From Candidatus Poribacteria bacterium (GTDB lineage Bacteria; Poribacteria; WGA-4E; PCPOR2b): a DNA stretch of 64,000 nucleotides. The stretch is from assembly GCA_965208325.1 (NCBI GenBank), contig OZ242326.1, positions 854,725-918,724 of the forward strand. The letters run 5' to 3'. The notes below the pieces were generated by a model. It saw only the letters and a list, made by a program, of their open reading frames with translations, made no database searches and had not been told where the DNA came from. Made by a program: the position numbers and the translations under genes. Position 1 is the first letter of the stretch; each line of letters opens with the position of its first letter. Positions 7,170-20,204 of this stretch are shown one piece after another.

Positions 7170-7967
7170 CTAATCCCATTGAATTACACCTTGATTCCCC
7201 TTCAATGTGACGGTCGGCGTCATCAATACCTCGCCTTCCTTTATATCAGGCATCCCAATCGGATCTAAAGCATGTGCAATTCTGCGGGAGAGGTGTTTCC
7301 CCAAATCTGCCTCCATCTCACTATCGGTCTTAAATGTAACCTGCCGCCGCTGCTCTGTTTGATAGGCATACCAATACTTGATATAGCCTCTGATTGAATC
7401 ATTGAATATCAGTTGTCCGGAATTCGTATCAATCACCTTTATCCAAGCGCGCATGTACGCACTCAGCCGTGTGCGAACAAAGGTTGCGGATCCTGATATC
7501 CCTGCTTGCCTCCCTAGCCGCTGGAGCAGCGTGTTATAATCTTTTCTAGCAAAGGTCGGCTCATCCAGCTTTCCAACCACAATCAGATTTGCGTTTAACT
7601 CTCTCCCTACTTTTGCGGCTAATGCAGAATCCTCAAACATGTGACTCAGAGTTACGCCCATCTCTTCGAGCTTCGATGCAACCGGGTTTACACTCTTCGA
7701 CTGATCATAAACGAACTGTATTTCTTTGTCTGCATTCTTGAACTTCAAATCGAAGTTTTCTGCCACCCGAATCGGAACCCATCTGCCAAGTTTTTCAGCC
7801 ATCTCCGCGATAAACGGAGCAATCGCAACTCCTTGCGCCTGTTCAATAGGAGGAGGAGTGGTGATTTTTTCACCTTCGATCGCTTTAGTGCAGCCAGCAA
7901 CTATAACAAGACCCGCCAAAATCAGAAAAACTTGAAACGGAACAGAAACCATCAACGCTCTCTTCAT
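7170..7967 (-). CDS. hypothetical lipoprotein
   Basis: Signal peptide with lipobox 'LVIVAGC'. No recognisable catalytic motif. Confidence 0.5.
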   Translation of the reverse strand: MKRALMVSVPFQVFLILAGLVIVAGCTKAIEGEKITTPPPIEQAQGVAIAPFIAEMAEKLGRWVPIRVAENFDLKFKNADKEIQFVYDQSKSVNPVASKLEEMGVTLSHMFEDSALAAKVGRELNANLIVVGKLDEPTFARKDYNTLLQRLGRQAGISGSATFVRTRLSAYMRAWIKVIDTNSGQLIFNDSIRGYIKYWYAYQTEQRRQVTFKTDSEMEADLGKHLSRRIAHALDPIGMPDIKEGEVLMTPTVTLKGNQGVIQWD

Positions 7968-9088
7968 GATTCAGTTTCACTCCTTACCTTAAATGAATAA
8001 AATGCGAACTCGCTTTTTTGGAAACGCACAGATTATAGCACAGTTAGATTCCTATGTCAATCATCTCCATGAAAACTAAAAAAAAATGTAGGGCAGGTAC
8101 TGAACCCGATCCTAATCATGTGGAGTACCAGACAGAATTCTACAACAAAAGATATTTGAGCATTAGTCTCAATCCTTTCACCAATAGGGGTGACACAATT
8201 TTTGTCATCTGTACAGATTTGTTTACTACGCCTCCACGCCTGATTTGGTGCGGGTTTTCGCAACCTTCGCGCACAATTCGCCGGAATTCTGTAAATAAAA
8301 TGTTACACCTATTTCCATACTCGGTCAGAACGTTATCCCCTAGACCAAATAATTTCAAACTGCCCGGATGCCATGGTACATGCGGATTTACGAGTCCAAA
8401 CCGAGTCTAAATTGAAGCGGAATGCTGGATTTGGCATATATTTTGCGATGTAAAACCTATATTTTAAGTAATGGATTAAGCCCAATAGTAGTGTTCTGTC
8501 TAGTGATACCTAAGGGGTTACAATAGCATCATTTAGGCGAAAATGTAAACGTTCGATACTACATGGGCTTCACTAAATGAGGGTTGACTCAACGGGGGTG
8601 ACGACTTGAGCGCTAAACGCAAAACACAAAGATATTTTCGCAAGATAATTAAGCGGTACCTAAAGCGGCAAAATCCTAGGATGCAGGTAATATACCGTAA
8701 GACAACCGCAAACTACTAATCGCCGCGAGAGATTTCAAGTAAAGATTTAAAATGGCGTATGCGGATAGCTAGAGCATCTTCAGATGGTTATAAAGGCTGA
8801 CTTCAACTGTTCTAATTTGCCGCACTTCTTTCTTTCAGCAAGCATAAACTCCAAATCAACCTACAAGATAAAACGCAATGGACTCAATACTGAAATGAGT
8901 GGCGAAGATGGAGCTATAAAGGTTCGCAGTAGCGCAATATGTTGTACGTTTTTGCGCCAATTATCATACTAGGCGTCGTACAAGCAGGTTAAGAATGAAT
9001 TGACGTGCAATCGATTGCGTTAATACAAAATGAACTGCGTAACCGCATGCATGCGTCAACCGCGAAAACATGTCGCATCAATCACATT

Positions 9089-9880
9089 TTACTTACGGCT
9101 AAAGCCCATAATTCCTATGATACCGAGCAATGCTAGATTTGGGAATAGCAGCGGCGCAAGTATCGGTGCGCCGTGGAGAAAGCTCTCTCTTACGCTTTCA
9201 GCGGGCGCTGCGAGATTCGCCAGCAGGTGCAAATAGAAGCCGACAACGCCCGCCAAACCGTTCAGCGCCAAGATTAACACGCAGAGCGCAAGAAACGGTG
9301 CATTGCGCGGCTGCACGATTGCCGTCATCAAGAAACTGACAGCCATGGCGCTTGCATACACAGGAATCCACTCGCGCCAATCGAAAAATCCGTTTTGAGC
9401 ATGGTCACAGAGCGACAGAACGAAATTGCCAAGAAATCCGACACACGCCATAACCAGCACCCATCTACCCCATTCTAGTGACTCTTCGTGGACCGTATGG
9501 TGCATGATTAACAGCAAACCAATGCCGGCAAAAGAGAGCGGCGCAATGAACGGCGCAGTGTACACCAGACTCTGAATGGTGAAATCGACGAAGAACTGGC
9601 TATCAAGATGATACAGCATACCTCCCACGCCGACAAAAATGGACACCCAACCAACGCCAACGCCTGTTAGCCGGTTCACCTGTGTGCTTCCCATGAAGCG
9701 TGCAACCAACAGCAGCGGTACGGCGGCAATCGAAACAATGAACGGTATCCATTCCGCTCTGTGTGCGAAGGCATTTATAGAGTGTGCGATGTAAACGTCG
9801 ATAGCCAAAAAAGCTAGGTTAATGGCGATAAAACACTCCAATAACACTGGACACTTATCCAGCAGCCTACGGTTTTGCAT
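9089..9880 (-). CDS. polytopic membrane protein (about 8 TM, conserved His), putative partner of the octaheme cytochrome
   Basis: Multiple hydrophobic helices with His inside or next to helices ('YIAHSINAFAH', 'MLYHLD', 'MHHTVHEE', 'LCDHAQNG', 'FYLHLL'). The likely ATG at 9880 overlaps the cytochrome stop at 9867-9869 by about 14 nt (an alternate TTG at 9904 is possible), suggesting translational coupling. Confidence 0.5.
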   Translation of the reverse strand: MQNRRLLDKCPVLLECFIAINLAFLAIDVYIAHSINAFAHRAEWIPFIVSIAAVPLLLVARFMGSTQVNRLTGVGVGWVSIFVGVGGMLYHLDSQFFVDFTIQSLVYTAPFIAPLSFAGIGLLLIMHHTVHEESLEWGRWVLVMACVGFLGNFVLSLCDHAQNGFFDWREWIPVYASAMAVSFLMTAIVQPRNAPFLALCVLILALNGLAGVVGFYLHLLANLAAPAESVRESFLHGAPILAPLLFPNLALLGIIGIMGFSRK

Positions 9881-11102
9881 GGCGTTCTCGGAGTTCCGCC
9901 GCAATGTGCTTCATCTCAGTGGCCTTCAGCAGCAGCTCATAATTCCCATGCCACTGCACGAAATCTGCGCCGCCCATAAATGCGCCGTGTTTGGCGGTCC
10001 GTCCATAATAATGCCACAGGTCGAAATAGATAAATTCTATCGGCTCATCGAAAGGATCGGGCGTAAGCAAACCCTCCTGCCGAAGTTCAGTCATTAACGC
10101 TTTCGCTTCGGATATCTTCGCGTTCGTCGCTTCAACAACCCCTTCAGCTTCTTGATAAATTCTCTCCACATGCGTTTGGGCGTGACATTTCAGGCAGGTC
10201 TCTTTCATCGCGCTCTGTGCCTGATGATAGGTTGGTCGCTGCTTTGACACCGGCGAGAATAACCAGTACGATAACCGCTCTGACGTGTCGTGCGTAACCT
10301 TCAAGCCTTCCAATCCGCTAAGGTGGCAGGTCGAACATGTGGGTACAGACATATCAGCGGTGGATAGATGTTTCGGATCAGCGCCGAGATTCATCTCGCG
10401 TTTCTGTGCGTTGTAAAGTACGCCGTGTTTCGACTCATGGAAAATCTCGATTTGCGAGTGATCCGGACCCATGTGGCATTGTCCGCAGGTCTCGGGTTCC
10501 CGTGCGAGCGCGACTGATGTAGTGTGCCACGCGTGGCAATGCGTGCATGTACCGATTGATCCGTCCGAGTTCGGCTTGCCGATGTCGTGACAGCCTAAAC
10601 ATCCAACATCAATAGCGCTTTGCCCTTCTCTCTGCGCGAGTTGATTGGCAGCACGATTGACCGCCCCTTCATGGTAAGTTTCCGCAAATTCAATCTGTTC
10701 AACCGTGAAATCCTGCTTACCTCGGACGGCTGCCCAAGCCGGCGCGCCGTGGCGGCTCTTGATAAACTGCTGGTACTCAGTCGTGTGGCACTGGCTACAG
10801 TTTTTCGCCGTAAGTTCCCCGGCGATGGTGAATCCGTTATGCGGCTGCTGTGCTTGCCCTTCTAGCGCTTGGTGACAATCGAGGCAGGTCACGCCGCTAT
10901 TCGCATGACGGCTTCTTTCAAATTGATGTACGACCGCTGAGGTCTCTCTTCGATGGCATGTTGCACACTTGCCAGTCGCTCGCACAAACTCGGCTTTCGG
11001 TTGCTCCGTCTCGTGAGCCGGGCGTCTTGCATTGAAAAACACCGCGCCCACAATGAAGGCAGCGCCCACAACCACACTGATGAAAATTGCTCTGAACGTC
11101 AT
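9867..11102 (-). CDS. octaheme c-type cytochrome (HAO/Otr-like multiheme family), N-terminally membrane-anchored
   Basis: Eight CXXCH motifs (CATCH, CLDCH, CSQCH, CLGCH, CTHCH, CGQCH, CSTCH, CLKCH) in 411 aa. N-terminal TM 'AIFISVVVGAAFIVGAVFF'. Confidence 0.7.
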   Translation of the reverse strand: MTFRAIFISVVVGAAFIVGAVFFNARRPAHETEQPKAEFVRATGKCATCHRRETSAVVHQFERSRHANSGVTCLDCHQALEGQAQQPHNGFTIAGELTAKNCSQCHTTEYQQFIKSRHGAPAWAAVRGKQDFTVEQIEFAETYHEGAVNRAANQLAQREGQSAIDVGCLGCHDIGKPNSDGSIGTCTHCHAWHTTSVALAREPETCGQCHMGPDHSQIEIFHESKHGVLYNAQKREMNLGADPKHLSTADMSVPTCSTCHLSGLEGLKVTHDTSERLSYWLFSPVSKQRPTYHQAQSAMKETCLKCHAQTHVERIYQEAEGVVEATNAKISEAKALMTELRQEGLLTPDPFDEPIEFIYFDLWHYYGRTAKHGAFMGGADFVQWHGNYELLLKATEMKHIAAELRERHAKP

Positions 11103-11495
11103 TTGTGCCCTCTGATTATTTTCTGCCTACGCCCCGGATTTCCCATATGTGAATGGTACATGTACATGCTATCGAAGCCGATATTGACCAACTCAACATC
11201 GGAATCTGAAGCAAACTGCGTTTCCACCTAGTGGAGTGATAAGGTGAGATTTAGAAACGACTTCATGGTGCTGCAAGTAATTTACGCAAATTATACGACA
11301 AGAAGTCACCCAAGATCAAGTTAGCTTCCACGAGTTTTGATTGCGCAACGCATTTGATCGCATTATAATACCCTATCTGTAATTTTCACTGAACGATAAA
11401 TTCTATAAGTGCCTATCCGCCAAAAACACCGCCTACACTATACGAAAATCGCAGTTAATCCGTCAATCCCGTGAATTACCAGTAAATAGGAGATT

Positions 11496-16868: not shown

Positions 16869-19800
16869 CTAAGACAGTTCATTCAGCAGAGCCTTTGCCA
16901 GCTTGAGATCTGCAGTATCAAATCCCTCCGTGAACCAGCCGTAAACCTGACTAAGCATGGTTCGAGCTTCCTCTTGTCTACCTTGCGTCTGCCACAGGCG
17001 GCTCAAACTTACTGCTGCCCGCAACTCTAAAGATTTTGCATTCTGCCGCCGCGCGATTTCGAAAGCTCGGCGCAAACACACCTCGGCATCTGATACGGCA
17101 TCGCCTTCCAATAACAACAGTTCTCCTTTGATTCGATACAATTCGGCTTCAAATAAACGTTCGTCACTATCGGAAACTGCCGCTAACGCATCATTCAGTA
17201 CGTAATGTCCTTCCTTCGGCTTTCCCGCTTTCAAAAACGATTCTGCCAACAGGGCTTGAAAATATGGGCGCAATATTTCCGCGCCGGTTGCACGCCAGTC
17301 CGCCAGCCCCTGTTGCATTTGTGCAATTCCCGCGGTTTCCATGCCCTGCTCGGATTGCGCCCAACCCTCACCAAAGGTTCCTGCAGATGCCCAGAGCGTA
17401 AATCCTTGTTCAGTTGAAATCTTTTTCACCGCTTCCGCCTGCGCTTCGGCAGTTTCCACTTCGCGCCGGCACTGATGAACCATTCCAGCGAAATACAACG
17501 CAACCGCCATGCTGAATGGGTGGTCTATCGATTTAGCAAGGCCTAACACCTCATGAATCCTTTTCATGGCTTGGTCCGGGTAGCCAAGAACCCACAGTAC
17601 GGCACCTGAATAGGATAGACATGTGAGACGGGCGTCCGCCAAATAATGGAAGAAAGTGCGGGAACGGTGTTCCTGCGAGTCATAAAGTTTAATGCCGTGC
17701 TCTAAGTGTTCTTCAGAAGCAACTAAGTCTCCAAGATAACACAAAGTTGCCCCTAACGCCCGATATGCTTCCAAAAGCAAAGCACGGTCTTCTGTCTGCT
17801 CAGCCAGTTTGAGCAGTTGCTCTCCCAGCTCGCGCGCCGCCTGTAACTCCGCCCTTACTAAATGCGCTAACCACAGCCCGAACAGCACGGGGAATAGTTG
17901 AGGACTTTCGCCCAACTCCTGGCAGAGTTCGCGTGCGCGAGTGTAGGCGTCTACTACTTCTGAAGCTGCATATCCTCTAGTGGCTATTAACGCCGGACCA
18001 AGGGTGGTTTGCAATTTGAGTTCATGCTGGGATTTTGCGGGACTATCCGGAAGGGCATTTAACAACTCTAATCCTCTGGATACGTGACGAATTGCTTCTA
18101 CGTTGGCTGACCGTTCAATGGCTCGCTGGCCTGCCCGCTGCCAATAGACTAACGCGTCATTGTCGAGGCTTGCTTCAGCGTAATGGTGGGCTAATACGCC
18201 AGGCTGAGTTTCGGCAACCTCCGGAAATTTCTCCGCCAGAACCTGTGCAATTTGCCGATGGTACTGCCCCCTTGCACTTTTGAGCAGTGAGTGATAAGCA
18301 GCCTCTCGAATAAGGGGGTGCTTGAAAAAATAAAATCCCGATTGGTTGTGTTGCTGGTAACCGAGAAGCCCAGCGTCAACTAACCGAGATAATTCTTTGT
18401 GCAGCGTCTTATCGTCAAGCGGCGAGACCGCGCCGAGTACCTCATCGGAAAACTGGCTTCCCATAACAGCGCCTAGTTGTGCTAACTCTTTGGCTGTGCC
18501 GAGCTGATCTAACCGGGCGGTCAGCGAATCTTGCAGTGTCGTAGGAATTGCCAGCGACAAAAGCGGCTGCGTTAATTCATAACCCCCGTCGCGTTCCTGG
18601 AGGAGACCCGATTCTAAAACCATCTTGGTCAATTCTTCCACAAACAGAGGCACGCCATCCGTCTTCGAAACAATCTGTTTCATCACTTCGGACGGCAGCA
18701 ATTTGCTCTTTGTGACGTGTTCAACCATAATTGCTACCTGTTTCCGAGTTAAGCGGTTTAGCGTAATTGGTGTAACATACGGGCATGAAAGCCACGGCGG
18801 GCTAAAATCCGGGCGAAACGTCAGTAAGGTAAGCAGATTGGGAGTCGAACCTCGATCGACAATGAGGTCGAGCAGTTCTAGCGTGGATGGATCAGCCCAG
18901 TGCAGGTCCTCTACAACGAGCAAAACAGGCTGCCGATTTGCCCGTCCTAGAAAAATCTCAAGCAGGGCTTCAAGTGTTTTTTGCCGCTGTTGCTGGGGGG
19001 TAAGAAATTGAGGCGGGTACCGGCCATCATCATACGGTATAGAAAGGAAGGAAGCAAATAGAGGTAAGTTTTCTTCAACGGAGAGTTTTGAAAATGCAAG
19101 GAAATCTGTTAATTTTGACAACTTTTTCTGCGGCGAATCCCCGCGTTCAAACCCCAACACCGCGCGCTGGAACATGTCAATAATTGGGTAAAGGGCGCTG
19201 TTCTGATGGTATGGCGAACAGCGGCACTCAATTATCGGTGAATTCTCCCACCATGCATCCGATATGTCGTTTGGACGTTTCTCAGAGGATGTTCTACTTT
19301 TAACGTGCTCTTTCAGCATCTGCACCATGCGCGATTTGCCTATTCCGGGTTCGCCGTTAAGCAGCACGACCTGTCCCGCGCCTTCTACACTTTGCTCCCA
19401 ACGCTCCAGCAATAAGCCTACGACCTGCTCACGGCCTACCAGCGGCGTAAGTCCAGTAGTCGCCGCCACATCAATGCGATTGCGAGCTTCACTCGCAATA
19501 ACTTGATACACGCGAATCGGGTAGGATATCCCTTTGAGCGTTCGAGCACCCAACGCTTGACATTCGAAGAATCCCGCAATGAGTCTATAAGTTGCTGCGC
19601 TAACCAACACGGTATTCGGCTCGGCAAGTTCCTGTAAACGGCCGGCGATGTTTGGGGTTTCACCTACGATTGCCATCAATTCCAACTCGCCGCCTTTGCC
19701 CATGTCTCCCGCTACTACCAACCCTGTGTGAATTCCAATGCGAACTTCCAACCGTAGTTCATTTTCCTGTTGAAGGCGTGCATTCAAATTCTCCATTCCC

Positions 19801-20204
19801 TCAATGATCGCCAATCCCGCACGAACCGCACGCTGGGCGTTGTCCTCGTGGGCATGGGGGTAACCGAAGTAGACTAGCAGCCCGTCACCGAAATATCGGG
19901 CGATATGCCCCTCAAAGCGCCTGATGGCTTTAGCACAAACCGCTTGGTAGTCGCCGAGGACATCGCGTAACTCTTCAGGGTCGAGTCTTTCGGAGAGTGA
20001 GGTTGAGCCAGCCAGATCGCAAAACATCACTGTCAACTGGCGGCGGTCCGCTTCAGGAATTTCACGAGGGTTAGAGGCGGGTTTGGCGGACGTTTCGGCA
20101 GGCGGCGCAGGTGCCGCGCGAGAATTGAGTTTCGCGCCGCAATTCATGCAGAATTGGGCTTCTTCCGGATTGGTATGTTCACAAATACGACAACGCATTT
20201 GCAC
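16869..20204 (-). CDS. class III adenylate/guanylate cyclase fused to STAND AAA+ ATPase and TPR/sensor domain, with N-terminal zinc ribbon
   Basis: Zinc ribbon 'CRICEHTNPEEAQFCMNCGAKL', cyclase motif 'LTVMFCDLAGSTSL...RIGIHTGLVVAGDMG', P-loop 'VLLNGEPGIGKSRM', long C-terminal helical/TPR region. 1111 aa. Confidence 0.8.
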   Translation of the reverse strand: MQMRCRICEHTNPEEAQFCMNCGAKLNSRAAPAPPAETSAKPASNPREIPEADRRQLTVMFCDLAGSTSLSERLDPEELRDVLGDYQAVCAKAIRRFEGHIARYFGDGLLVYFGYPHAHEDNAQRAVRAGLAIIEGMENLNARLQQENELRLEVRIGIHTGLVVAGDMGKGGELELMAIVGETPNIAGRLQELAEPNTVLVSAATYRLIAGFFECQALGARTLKGISYPIRVYQVIASEARNRIDVAATTGLTPLVGREQVVGLLLERWEQSVEGAGQVVLLNGEPGIGKSRMVQMLKEHVKSRTSSEKRPNDISDAWWENSPIIECRCSPYHQNSALYPIIDMFQRAVLGFERGDSPQKKLSKLTDFLAFSKLSVEENLPLFASFLSIPYDDGRYPPQFLTPQQQRQKTLEALLEIFLGRANRQPVLLVVEDLHWADPSTLELLDLIVDRGSTPNLLTLLTFRPDFSPPWLSCPYVTPITLNRLTRKQVAIMVEHVTKSKLLPSEVMKQIVSKTDGVPLFVEELTKMVLESGLLQERDGGYELTQPLLSLAIPTTLQDSLTARLDQLGTAKELAQLGAVMGSQFSDEVLGAVSPLDDKTLHKELSRLVDAGLLGYQQHNQSGFYFFKHPLIREAAYHSLLKSARGQYHRQIAQVLAEKFPEVAETQPGVLAHHYAEASLDNDALVYWQRAGQRAIERSANVEAIRHVSRGLELLNALPDSPAKSQHELKLQTTLGPALIATRGYAASEVVDAYTRARELCQELGESPQLFPVLFGLWLAHLVRAELQAARELGEQLLKLAEQTEDRALLLEAYRALGATLCYLGDLVASEEHLEHGIKLYDSQEHRSRTFFHYLADARLTCLSYSGAVLWVLGYPDQAMKRIHEVLGLAKSIDHPFSMAVALYFAGMVHQCRREVETAEAQAEAVKKISTEQGFTLWASAGTFGEGWAQSEQGMETAGIAQMQQGLADWRATGAEILRPYFQALLAESFLKAGKPKEGHYVLNDALAAVSDSDERLFEAELYRIKGELLLLEGDAVSDAEVCLRRAFEIARRQNAKSLELRAAVSLSRLWQTQGRQEEARTMLSQVYGWFTEGFDTADLKLAKALLNELS

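Follow-up and report, generated by a model that had tools for sequence, protein, structure and literature searches.

A membrane-anchored octahaem cytochrome c of the HAO family and an unassigned eight-helix membrane protein form a conserved two-gene module: a candidate quinol:nitrite reductase

The 64,000-nucleotide stretch of contig OZ242326.1 from a Candidatus Poribacteria bacterium analysed here (the window, to which all positions of its features refer) carries on its reverse strand a gene for an octahaem cytochrome c of the HAO family, overlapping a gene for a polytopic protein with eight transmembrane (TM) helices. The cytochrome and the membrane protein constitute an autonomous, co-inherited two-gene module that recurs across phyla. 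The reading favoured here, with moderate confidence, is that the pair is a two-subunit, membrane-bound quinol:nitrite (N-oxide) reductase, the new membrane protein replacing the NapC, NrfH or cM552 cytochrome of known systems. Cytochromes of this type have already turned up in genome and metagenome surveys, and biochemical work exists on epsilon-Hao relatives that share the signature; what seems to be new is the membrane partner, which has no family assignment, and its two-gene unit with the cytochrome. In the literature that could be searched, neither a membrane-anchored HAO nor its partner was found described, in line with a first-pass annotation of this DNA that had called the pairing not textbook.

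The two genes are tightly packed, the membrane-protein open reading frame (ORF; 263 aa) lying directly downstream of that of the cytochrome (411 aa). The ORF list had placed the start of the former at TTG 9904; the conserved start is ATG 9880, which is adopted here because homologues align from that Met. With this start, the cytochrome stop codon (9867-9869) and the membrane-protein ATG fall within a 14-nt overlap (ATGCAAAACCGTAG). The genes flanking the pair in the window are unrelated to it (an SDR protein, an FAD oxidase, a PhyH dioxygenase and an FG-GAP/ASPIC protein), and a scan of the ORFs of at least 180 aa across the 64 kb found no further gene of respiration or the nitrogen cycle. A membrane protein 89% identical to that of the window is encoded on chromosome OZ242351.1, where its gene has the same neighbours.

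That the two genes travel together is evident from their distribution. The scan of a genome collection, made with a single membrane-protein sequence, yielded five loci, and the cytochrome gene stands directly upstream in six of six genome loci (four Poribacteria, one Phycisphaeraceae, one Gemmataceae), again with unrelated flanks. A metagenome scan with a profile of the membrane-protein alignment gave 80 loci; of the 72 that were assessable (at least 400 nt upstream), 71 have the cytochrome gene directly upstream on the same strand. Of these 71 cytochromes, 50 are full-length with all eight motifs, 19 run off a contig end and 2 were inspected manually. Searching from the cytochrome instead, the partner gene was adjacent in all three assessable loci. 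The spacing, where the membrane-gene start could be reliably placed, is mostly an overlap of 4-20 nt (up to 29 nt) or a gap of 0-3 nt, and members of the membrane family at 25-35% identity are also paired with a cytochrome. Clustering of the flanking ORFs of 38 long loci revealed no third conserved gene, and no family occurred more than twice in a Pfam scan of 132 neighbours. The first-pass annotation had also reported that a NapC/NrfH-type partner is absent, and this is borne out: none was found among the scanned ORFs of the window and none is conserved in the 38 long loci, the rest of the genome not having been searched. The pairwise identities of the two proteins correlate over 54 loci (r = 0.74), with means of 60% for the cytochrome vs 49% for the membrane protein. 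Named hosts belong to Poribacteria, Planctomycetota, Marinimicrobia and KSB1, and many further loci lie on other metagenome contigs.

Two departures from the usual arrangement were seen. Locus L044 (1-880) is the one assessable metagenome locus that lacks the cytochrome; the membrane-protein gene is immediately preceded there by a transposase-like C-terminal fragment, a sign that an insertion sequence may have disrupted the pair or that the contig is chimeric. The 405-aa database protein P0213 joins the C-terminal third of the cytochrome and the membrane protein in one frame; it probably reflects a frameshift or an assembly artefact of the same adjacency rather than a natural fusion.

The family of the cytochrome is clear. 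The protein matches PF13447 (E 2e-25), and its family profile, compared with the PDB, retrieves IhOCC of Ignicoccus (4qo5) as the best match (E 1e-45), together with Nitrosomonas HAO (NeHAO; E 6e-26), Kustc0458 (E 1e-23), kustc1061 (E 2e-19) and HDH (E 7e-19). A total of 3462 homologues were found, the best 120 of them 65-97% identical; one homologue, 69% identical to the window protein, is labelled 'nitrate reductase [Phycisphaera sp.]' in GenBank. Exactly eight CXXCH motifs are present (starting at residues 46, 73, 102, 168, 186, 206, 256 and 303), and in the alignment all eight follow the order of those in NeHAO, so placed that haem 4 would occupy the position of the HAO catalytic haem. H66, H88, H193, H226 and H271 align with His residues of HAO and are invariant, consistent with a role as conserved distal haem ligands. 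The pair D214-H215 is likewise invariant among 38 homologues; IhOCC carries Asp-Val there. Tried as an alternative, an Otr-like identity was rejected, since the same profile comparison gave no match to Otr and only a marginal, partial one to ONR (3sxq; E 3.5e-4, residues 60-107).

At the N-terminus, the same 38 homologues all share F7, R27 and P28, with G13 and L16 almost invariant, and no AxA cleavage motif is found. Because of this conservation and the missing AxA motif, a retained signal anchor is likelier than a cleaved signal peptide. Haem 1 is the nearest to this anchor and is presumed to be the electron entry port. The AlphaFold2 model of the whole cytochrome, built on a 38-sequence alignment, is poor, with a predicted local distance difference test (pLDDT) score of 58 and a predicted template modelling (pTM) score of 0.35.

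The expected direction of catalysis follows from the C-terminal region. Tyr467 of NeHAO, which forms the cross-link to the catalytic haem, was located in the segment GGWTYTEGW and verified in the sequence; the 22-residue loop that bears it is missing from the C-terminal alignment of both the cytochrome family and IhOCC. The family carries M376 and W384, each invariant among homologues, and this spacing is the epsilon-Hao signature of Haase et al. as it is quoted in a survey (PMC8940962), with Trp for Tyr and a Met eight residues earlier. By the convention quoted there, W384 is the residue equivalent to the cross-linking Tyr. Where HAOs lacking the cross-link have been assayed, they proved to be reductases with negligible oxidase activity; epsilon-Hao reduces nitrite and hydroxylamine, and the Kuenenia HAOr converts nitrite to NO (PMC8042395). 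Given the absent Tyr and the Met/Trp signature, the cytochrome is assigned to the reductive type and not to the hydroxylamine oxidisers; judged from its sequence, it is a compact, membrane-anchored, epsilon-Hao-like reductive HAO. Tyr-less hao genes have been noted as putative nitrite reductases in Phycisphaerae genomes (PMC11266412) and in hypersaline mats (PMC8940962), and they rank among the most abundant 'nitrogen-cycle' genes in the metagenomes of one hypersaline mat (PMC8940962). Poriferisphaera corsica, a culturable candidate source of such a gene, is reported to encode a hao-like octahaem protein. The first-pass annotation had described an octahaem cytochrome of the HAO, epsilon-Hao or Otr type, encoded by a gene translationally coupled to that of a His-rich protein with eight TM helices, and had listed nitrite, hydroxylamine or tetrathionate chemistry for it. 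The eight motifs in 411 aa, the conserved anchor, the gene overlap and the family matches uphold the architecture and the HAO membership; the Otr-like relationship is abandoned, and the check it had proposed for the cross-linking Tyr turned out against hydroxylamine oxidation.

The partner is well predicted by AlphaFold2 as a protein of eight TM helices (mean pLDDT 87, pTM 0.86). Its N- and C-terminal halves align with each other in hhalign (97.9% probability, E 6e-13), with H33 superposed on H160 and H91 on H218, which identifies the protein as a tandem duplication of a four-helix unit. These four residues are the invariant ones among its nine His. Lys and Arg are more frequent in the putative cytoplasmic segments (8.4) than in the others (3.3); since these counts follow the positive-inside rule, both termini are placed in the cytoplasm, and all strongly conserved motifs (AHSxNxF...EWxP, HLxSxFF...YTAPFxAPL, DHAQNGFF..EWxP and H...GAPxFAPLLF) therefore lie on the periplasmic side. 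Down to 25-35% identity, D28, H33, H91, D159-H160, E170-W171, G214 and H218 remain invariant, and the AP..AP and P...P motifs are also kept; E43, the counterpart of E170 in the first repeat, does not vary among the closer members. Two Asp and two Glu thus make up the invariant acidic residues, predicted to be periplasmic like the four His. Each repeat presents a His on its first and third helix and an acidic residue on its second. Gly residues stand one and about two turns below the His, both invariant on TM3; on TM7 this holds strictly for G214 and almost for G211. The other two helices of the repeats contribute small residues (S50 and A53, and the APxxAP motif). By analogy, this pattern of His, Gly and small residues resembles bis-His haem b bundles, and the set of His and carboxylates would fit a bis-His b haem, a 2-His-1-carboxylate metal site or a cofactor-free quinol/proton site equally well.

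No match of this protein to a known family was found. None of 36 members matched a Pfam family, the window protein has no significant match in NCBIfam, the family profile matches no PDB sequence even at E 10, and Foldseek returned no solved structure (E 0.4 or worse). The family is large, with 2313 clusters of homologues at 90% identity and 604 representatives at 50%, and every member named in its source is a 'hypothetical protein'. The sequence has no CXXCH motif and hence none of the make-up of NapC, NrfH and cM552, a single TM helix with four CXXCH haems. For NrfD/PsrC neither a Pfam nor a fold match was obtained, and for dihaem cytochromes b (PF01292, PF00033, NarI-like) there was no match by hidden Markov model, PDB sequence or fold. 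A dedicated haem lyase of the CcsBA/NrfI type was also considered and rejected, because all motifs of the cytochrome are canonical CXXCH and the membrane protein shows no WWD motif and no homology to such lyases. Conservation of His among homologues had been set in advance as the test of the first-pass proposal that the partner carries functional His residues, and with four invariant His at helix ends that part of the proposal stands; the further suggestion of a haem b-binding or quinol dehydrogenase role, with no homologue or fold match behind it, is kept here as conjecture.

Taken as a quinol:nitrite reductase, the complex would work as follows. The cytochrome, as catalytic subunit, would be held at the membrane by its own N-terminal helix, with the invariant polar residues and the most conserved loops of the eight-helix subunit facing it. 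Oxidation of quinol would take place on the periplasmic side of that subunit, at the conserved His/Asp/Glu cluster, and the electrons would pass to haem 1, which follows the anchor helix in the cytochrome sequence, either directly or through a cofactor bound to the His pairs (a b haem in each bundle, or a non-haem metal). From there they would run along the haem chain to the catalytic haem 4 with its distal Asp-His pair, where nitrite, or possibly NO or hydroxylamine, would be reduced in the periplasm to hydroxylamine, NO or ammonium. What the sequences show directly is the family and active-site signature of the cytochrome, the architecture, topology and invariant residues of its partner, and the linkage of the two genes; a physical complex, quinol oxidation, the cofactor, the substrate and the product are inferred from these. 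A bolder extension, less likely than not but with a realistic chance, is that respiratory quinol dehydrogenases or quinone-reactive anchors of a new class begin with this membrane protein, which would have no relation to NrfH/NapC, NrfD or cytochrome b. In each four-helix bundle, a His-His(-Glu/Asp) set would then bind a cofactor at the periplasmic surface, be it a b haem or a non-haem iron recalling the quinone-iron acceptor complex of type II reaction centres, and relatives encoded beside a flavoprotein dehydrogenase (see below) would make it a general-purpose module.

Comparison with known systems places the pair among reductive HAOs with an unusual partner. Like the epsilon-Hao of Campylobacterota, the cytochrome is an octahaem HAO-family protein with a distal Asp-His pair and, by the signature as quoted in the survey, Trp for the cross-linking Tyr and Met eight residues before; epsilon-Hao is soluble and periplasmic and is served by NapC, NrfH or cM552 tetrahaem cytochromes, whereas the window cytochrome is membrane-anchored. 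The reverse hydroxylamine:ubiquinone redox module (HURM) of Nautilia profundicola, made up of Hao, a cM552-like cytochrome and Hcp/Har, shares the presumed quinol-to-nitrite direction and, occasionally, the link to hcp; here, however, the proposed quinol-oxidising partner is an eight-helix protein without CXXCH in an overlapping two-gene unit. IhOCC (Igni_0955 of Ignicoccus hospitalis) has the C-terminal helical region in common with the window cytochrome and likewise lacks the Tyr467 loop, but it is longer (521 aa, with insertions) and differs at the distal pair. To our knowledge, no eight-helix partner of IhOCC is known. Nitrosomonas HAO and the anammox enzymes HOX and HDH have the same eight haems in the same order, the distal His ligands, the Asp-His pair and the C-terminal helices; in contrast to them, the window cytochrome is about 130 residues shorter, lacks the cross-linking Tyr and is anchored in the membrane, and its partner (theirs being c554 and cM552 of the HURM) and expected catalytic direction are different and opposite, respectively. 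With Kustc0458/0457 (HAOr) of Kuenenia the pair shares a reductive HAO without cross-link and a dedicated partner encoded adjacently, although the Kuenenia partner is a soluble dihaem cytochrome c in a soluble complex and not a polytopic membrane protein. The proposed scheme of quinol oxidation at the periplasmic face, c haems and a five-coordinate catalytic haem is that of NrfHA, NrfABCD and CymA-type systems; unlike NrfH/NapC or NrfD/PsrC, the membrane subunit is a protein of about 260 aa built of two four-helix repeats, with no haem c and no Pfam or fold match. As in NarI, FdnI/HydC and the cytochrome b of the bc1 complex, four invariant His stand on first and third helices with Gly or small residues near them, but those proteins have a haem site near each face, whereas here all four His lie at the periplasmic level.

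Hints of function also come from a few neighbouring genes. At locus L065 (3010-6801), the cytochrome gene is preceded on the same strand, at a distance of 8 nt, by hcp (Prismane, E 3e-168); a cupin gene and, nearby, one for a Crp/Fnr-type regulator lie downstream. At L093 (2712-6069), a TetR regulator and ytfE/RIC (ScdA_N plus hemerythrin) stand directly before the pair, again on the same strand. The genes hcp and ytfE are each linked to stress by NO and hydroxylamine. The scheme of reverse HURM for Nautilia pairs Hao with Hcp, the quinol oxidase being a NapC/NrfH/cM552 cytochrome (PMC2628731), and the position of hcp at L065 fits this Hao-plus-Hcp pairing. A distant relative of the membrane protein, P0447 (L087, 5001-5999; E 8e-15), retains the four His, HxQNGF and GPPxFAPLLF. 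Its gene lies between those of a thiamine pyrophosphate enzyme and a Gluconate_2-dh3/GMC flavoprotein pair, overlapping both neighbours and without a cytochrome; this is a single locus, and the small subunit beside P0447 has no twin-arginine translocation (Tat) signal. The context hints at a more general role of the membrane family as an electron-transfer anchor. The homologue search with a profile of distant family members gave 11 proteins.

Several observations weigh against a quinol:nitrite reductase. Neither sequence nor fold relates the membrane protein to a known quinol dehydrogenase, to cytochrome b or to NrfD, and its haem b binding or quinol dehydrogenase activity is something we infer. 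Its four invariant His are all on one side of the membrane, unlike those of classical dihaem cytochromes b; there is no invariant Arg or Lys to bind haem propionates, and the His/Asp/Glu set suits a metal site equally well. The substrate is deduced from the family signatures of the cytochrome alone, whose model (pLDDT 58) is too poor for the active site or a trimer to be checked structurally; in most loci the neighbours are unconnected to nitrogen metabolism, and the hosts include aerobic heterotrophs. Furthermore, the anchor and haems 1-2 of the cytochrome are themselves weakly NrfH-like (E 0.003, far below the family cut-off), and the cytochrome might oxidise quinol by itself. It would then do so through its anchor and haem 1, as NrfH and CymA do, and the eight-helix protein would have an accessory, non-redox function: it could act as a scaffold, keep the trimer stable at the membrane, or serve in assembly or maturation, in a position like that of HaoB beside HaoA. 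The conserved anchor residues and the match to TIGR03153 over residues 11-78 (anchor and haems 1-2; E 0.0028) speak for such self-sufficiency, and HaoB is a precedent for a hao-adjacent gene without explained function; in the partner here, too, no redox motif can be recognised, and none of its homologues has a known function. The TIGR03153 score is 17.7 bits against a cut-off of 134, however; four His, two Asp and two Glu rarely stay invariant down to 25% identity in a passive scaffold, and canonical CXXCH motifs need no dedicated lyase, nor does the partner have a WWD-type haem-handling motif. On balance this explanation is considered unlikely.

A different substrate or the reverse direction would leave the partner its redox role. 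Sulfite, tetrathionate, polysulfide, a metal or an extracellular acceptor could be reduced with quinol instead of a nitrogen compound. Such substrates, sulfur compounds included, have been proposed for other HAO homologues outside clade III, and the roles of HAOs outside nitrifiers, anammox bacteria and Campylobacterota are not established (PMC9213671); IhOCC, the closest solved relative, comes from a sulfur-reducing archaeon, and most neighbourhoods are devoid of nitrogen-cycle genes. This is nevertheless judged quite improbable, taking into account the conserved Asp-His pair, the epsilon-Hao Met/Trp signature as quoted, the lack of similarity to Otr or MccA, and that the only suggestive neighbours, hcp and ytfE, are both linked to NO or hydroxylamine. 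Distinctly improbable, too, is operation in the oxidative direction, with the octahaem protein oxidising a donor in the periplasm (hydroxylamine, hydrazine or another reduced nitrogen or sulfur compound) and the membrane protein reducing quinone, as a minimal analogue of the HAO-c554-cM552 HURM of nitrifiers. The Asp-His pair is used by oxidative HAOs too, and the P0447 operon with its GMC flavoprotein dehydrogenase would suit a quinone-reducing anchor; the analogy is weak, however, in view of the small subunit without Tat signal, the loop of the cross-linking Tyr is absent and the epsilon-Hao Trp signature, as quoted, present, oxidase activity is negligible in the assayed HAOs without cross-link (PMC8042395), and neither amo nor related genes were found near the pair. 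Least probable of the explanations weighed is that the membrane protein is a channel or facilitator for nitrite, hydroxylamine, ammonium or NO, for instance delivering hydroxylamine to a cytoplasmic Hcp. The reverse-HURM scheme does require entry of hydroxylamine into the cytoplasm (PMC2628731), hcp adjoins the pair at L065, and internally duplicated repeats are found in many small transporters. Yet the invariant polar residues lie at the periplasmic surface only, with no conserved polar path across the membrane or at the cytoplasmic side; the two four-helix bundles are tight and match no transporter fold, and hydroxylamine and NO pass membranes unaided.

For the Tyr-less hao genes outside Campylobacterota, the eight-helix protein is a concrete candidate for the quinol-oxidising partner that would link them to the respiratory chain. 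A large and highly conserved HAO subgroup (thousands of sequence clusters) travels with one uncharacterised membrane protein and no other gene; this minimal unit of two genes lends itself to expression and assay. If the quinol:nitrite reductase reading is true, bioenergetics would gain a new type of quinol dehydrogenase, and nitrite ammonification or detoxification could be better annotated where the labels now read 'multiheme cytochrome' and 'hypothetical protein'.

The operon promoter likely lies in the intergenic region upstream of the cytochrome gene, judged by consensus matches (Table 1). On the 3' side of the module no clear terminator was seen; the 1.1 kb downstream of the membrane-protein gene (7968-9088) contain no ORF of at least 120 aa and no Rfam match, the Rfam scan of the window having matched no RNA element at all. 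A perfect sigma-70 consensus (TTGACA-17-TATAAT, with an upstream TG) is present at 8060-8032 on the reverse strand, before a gene for a 265-aa lipoprotein-like protein (7170-7967).

Table 1. Features of the cytochrome/membrane-protein module, listed along the reverse strand (positions in the window).
Feature	Position	Strand	Basis or remark
Upstream intergenic region with three sigma-70-like promoter matches	11103-11495	-	Consensus matches only
Gene for membrane-anchored, epsilon-Hao-like HAO-family octahaem cytochrome c without cross-link, 411 aa	9867-11102	-	ORF, PF13447
N-terminal TM signal anchor, residues 3-25	11028-11096	-	Helix pLDDT 91-94, about 20 hydrophobic residues
Haem 1 motif CATCH, residues 46-50	10953-10967	-	Aligned to NeHAO CVECH
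Haem 2 motif CLDCH, residues 73-77	10872-10886	-	Aligned to NeHAO CIDCH
Haem 3 motif CSQCH, residues 102-106	10785-10799	-	Aligned to NeHAO CGTCH
Haem 4 motif CLGCH, residues 168-172	10587-10601	-	Aligned to NeHAO CTMCH (P460 haem motif)
Haem 5 motif CTHCH, residues 186-190	10533-10547	-	Aligned to NeHAO CDNCH
Haem 6 motif CGQCH, residues 206-210	10473-10487	-	Aligned to NeHAO CATCH
Asp214-His215, equivalent of the HAO distal Asp-His pair	10458-10463	-	Aligned to NeHAO 'VDH' after the haem 6 motif
Haem 7 motif CSTCH, residues 256-260	10323-10337	-	Aligned to NeHAO CAACH
Haem 8 motif CLKCH, residues 303-307	10182-10196	-	Aligned to NeHAO CTQCH
Met376-x7-Trp384, MGGADFVQW, epsilon-Hao signature with Trp replacing the cross-linking Tyr	9951-9977	-	Sequence
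14-nt overlap of cytochrome stop codon and membrane-protein start codon	9867-9880	-	Read as translational coupling
Gene for membrane protein with eight TM helices (two four-helix repeats), 263 aa	9089-9880	-	AlphaFold2, hhalign, gene adjacency
Asp28...His33, periplasmic end of TM1, invariant	9782-9799	-	Family alignment
His91, periplasmic end of TM3, invariant, after invariant G84 and G87	9608-9610	-	Family alignment
Asp159-His160 of the DHAQNGFF motif, periplasmic end of TM5, invariant	9401-9406	-	Family alignment
His218, near periplasmic end of TM7, invariant, after G214 (invariant) and G211 (nearly)	9227-9229	-	Family alignment

Elsewhere in the window, the segment 34352-47554 has a lower G+C content (0.44-0.47 vs about 0.51 elsewhere) and carries genes for a UvrD-helicase/PD-(D/E)XK nuclease, an N6/N4 DNA methylase, a trypsin-like peptidase and a ResIII helicase. 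It resembles an islet for type III restriction-modification or defence and may have been gained by horizontal transfer. The segment 37-1227 encodes a protein similar to the RuBisCO large chain (PF00016, E 7e-13, with only part of the catalytic domain matched), next to a GFO/IDH/MocA oxidoreductase; it is probably no carboxylase but a RuBisCO-like protein of form IV. A 1111-aa signalling protein combining adenylate/guanylate cyclase, AAA ATPase and TPR regions (16869-20204) lies beside a Na+/sulfate-type symporter of the DASS family.

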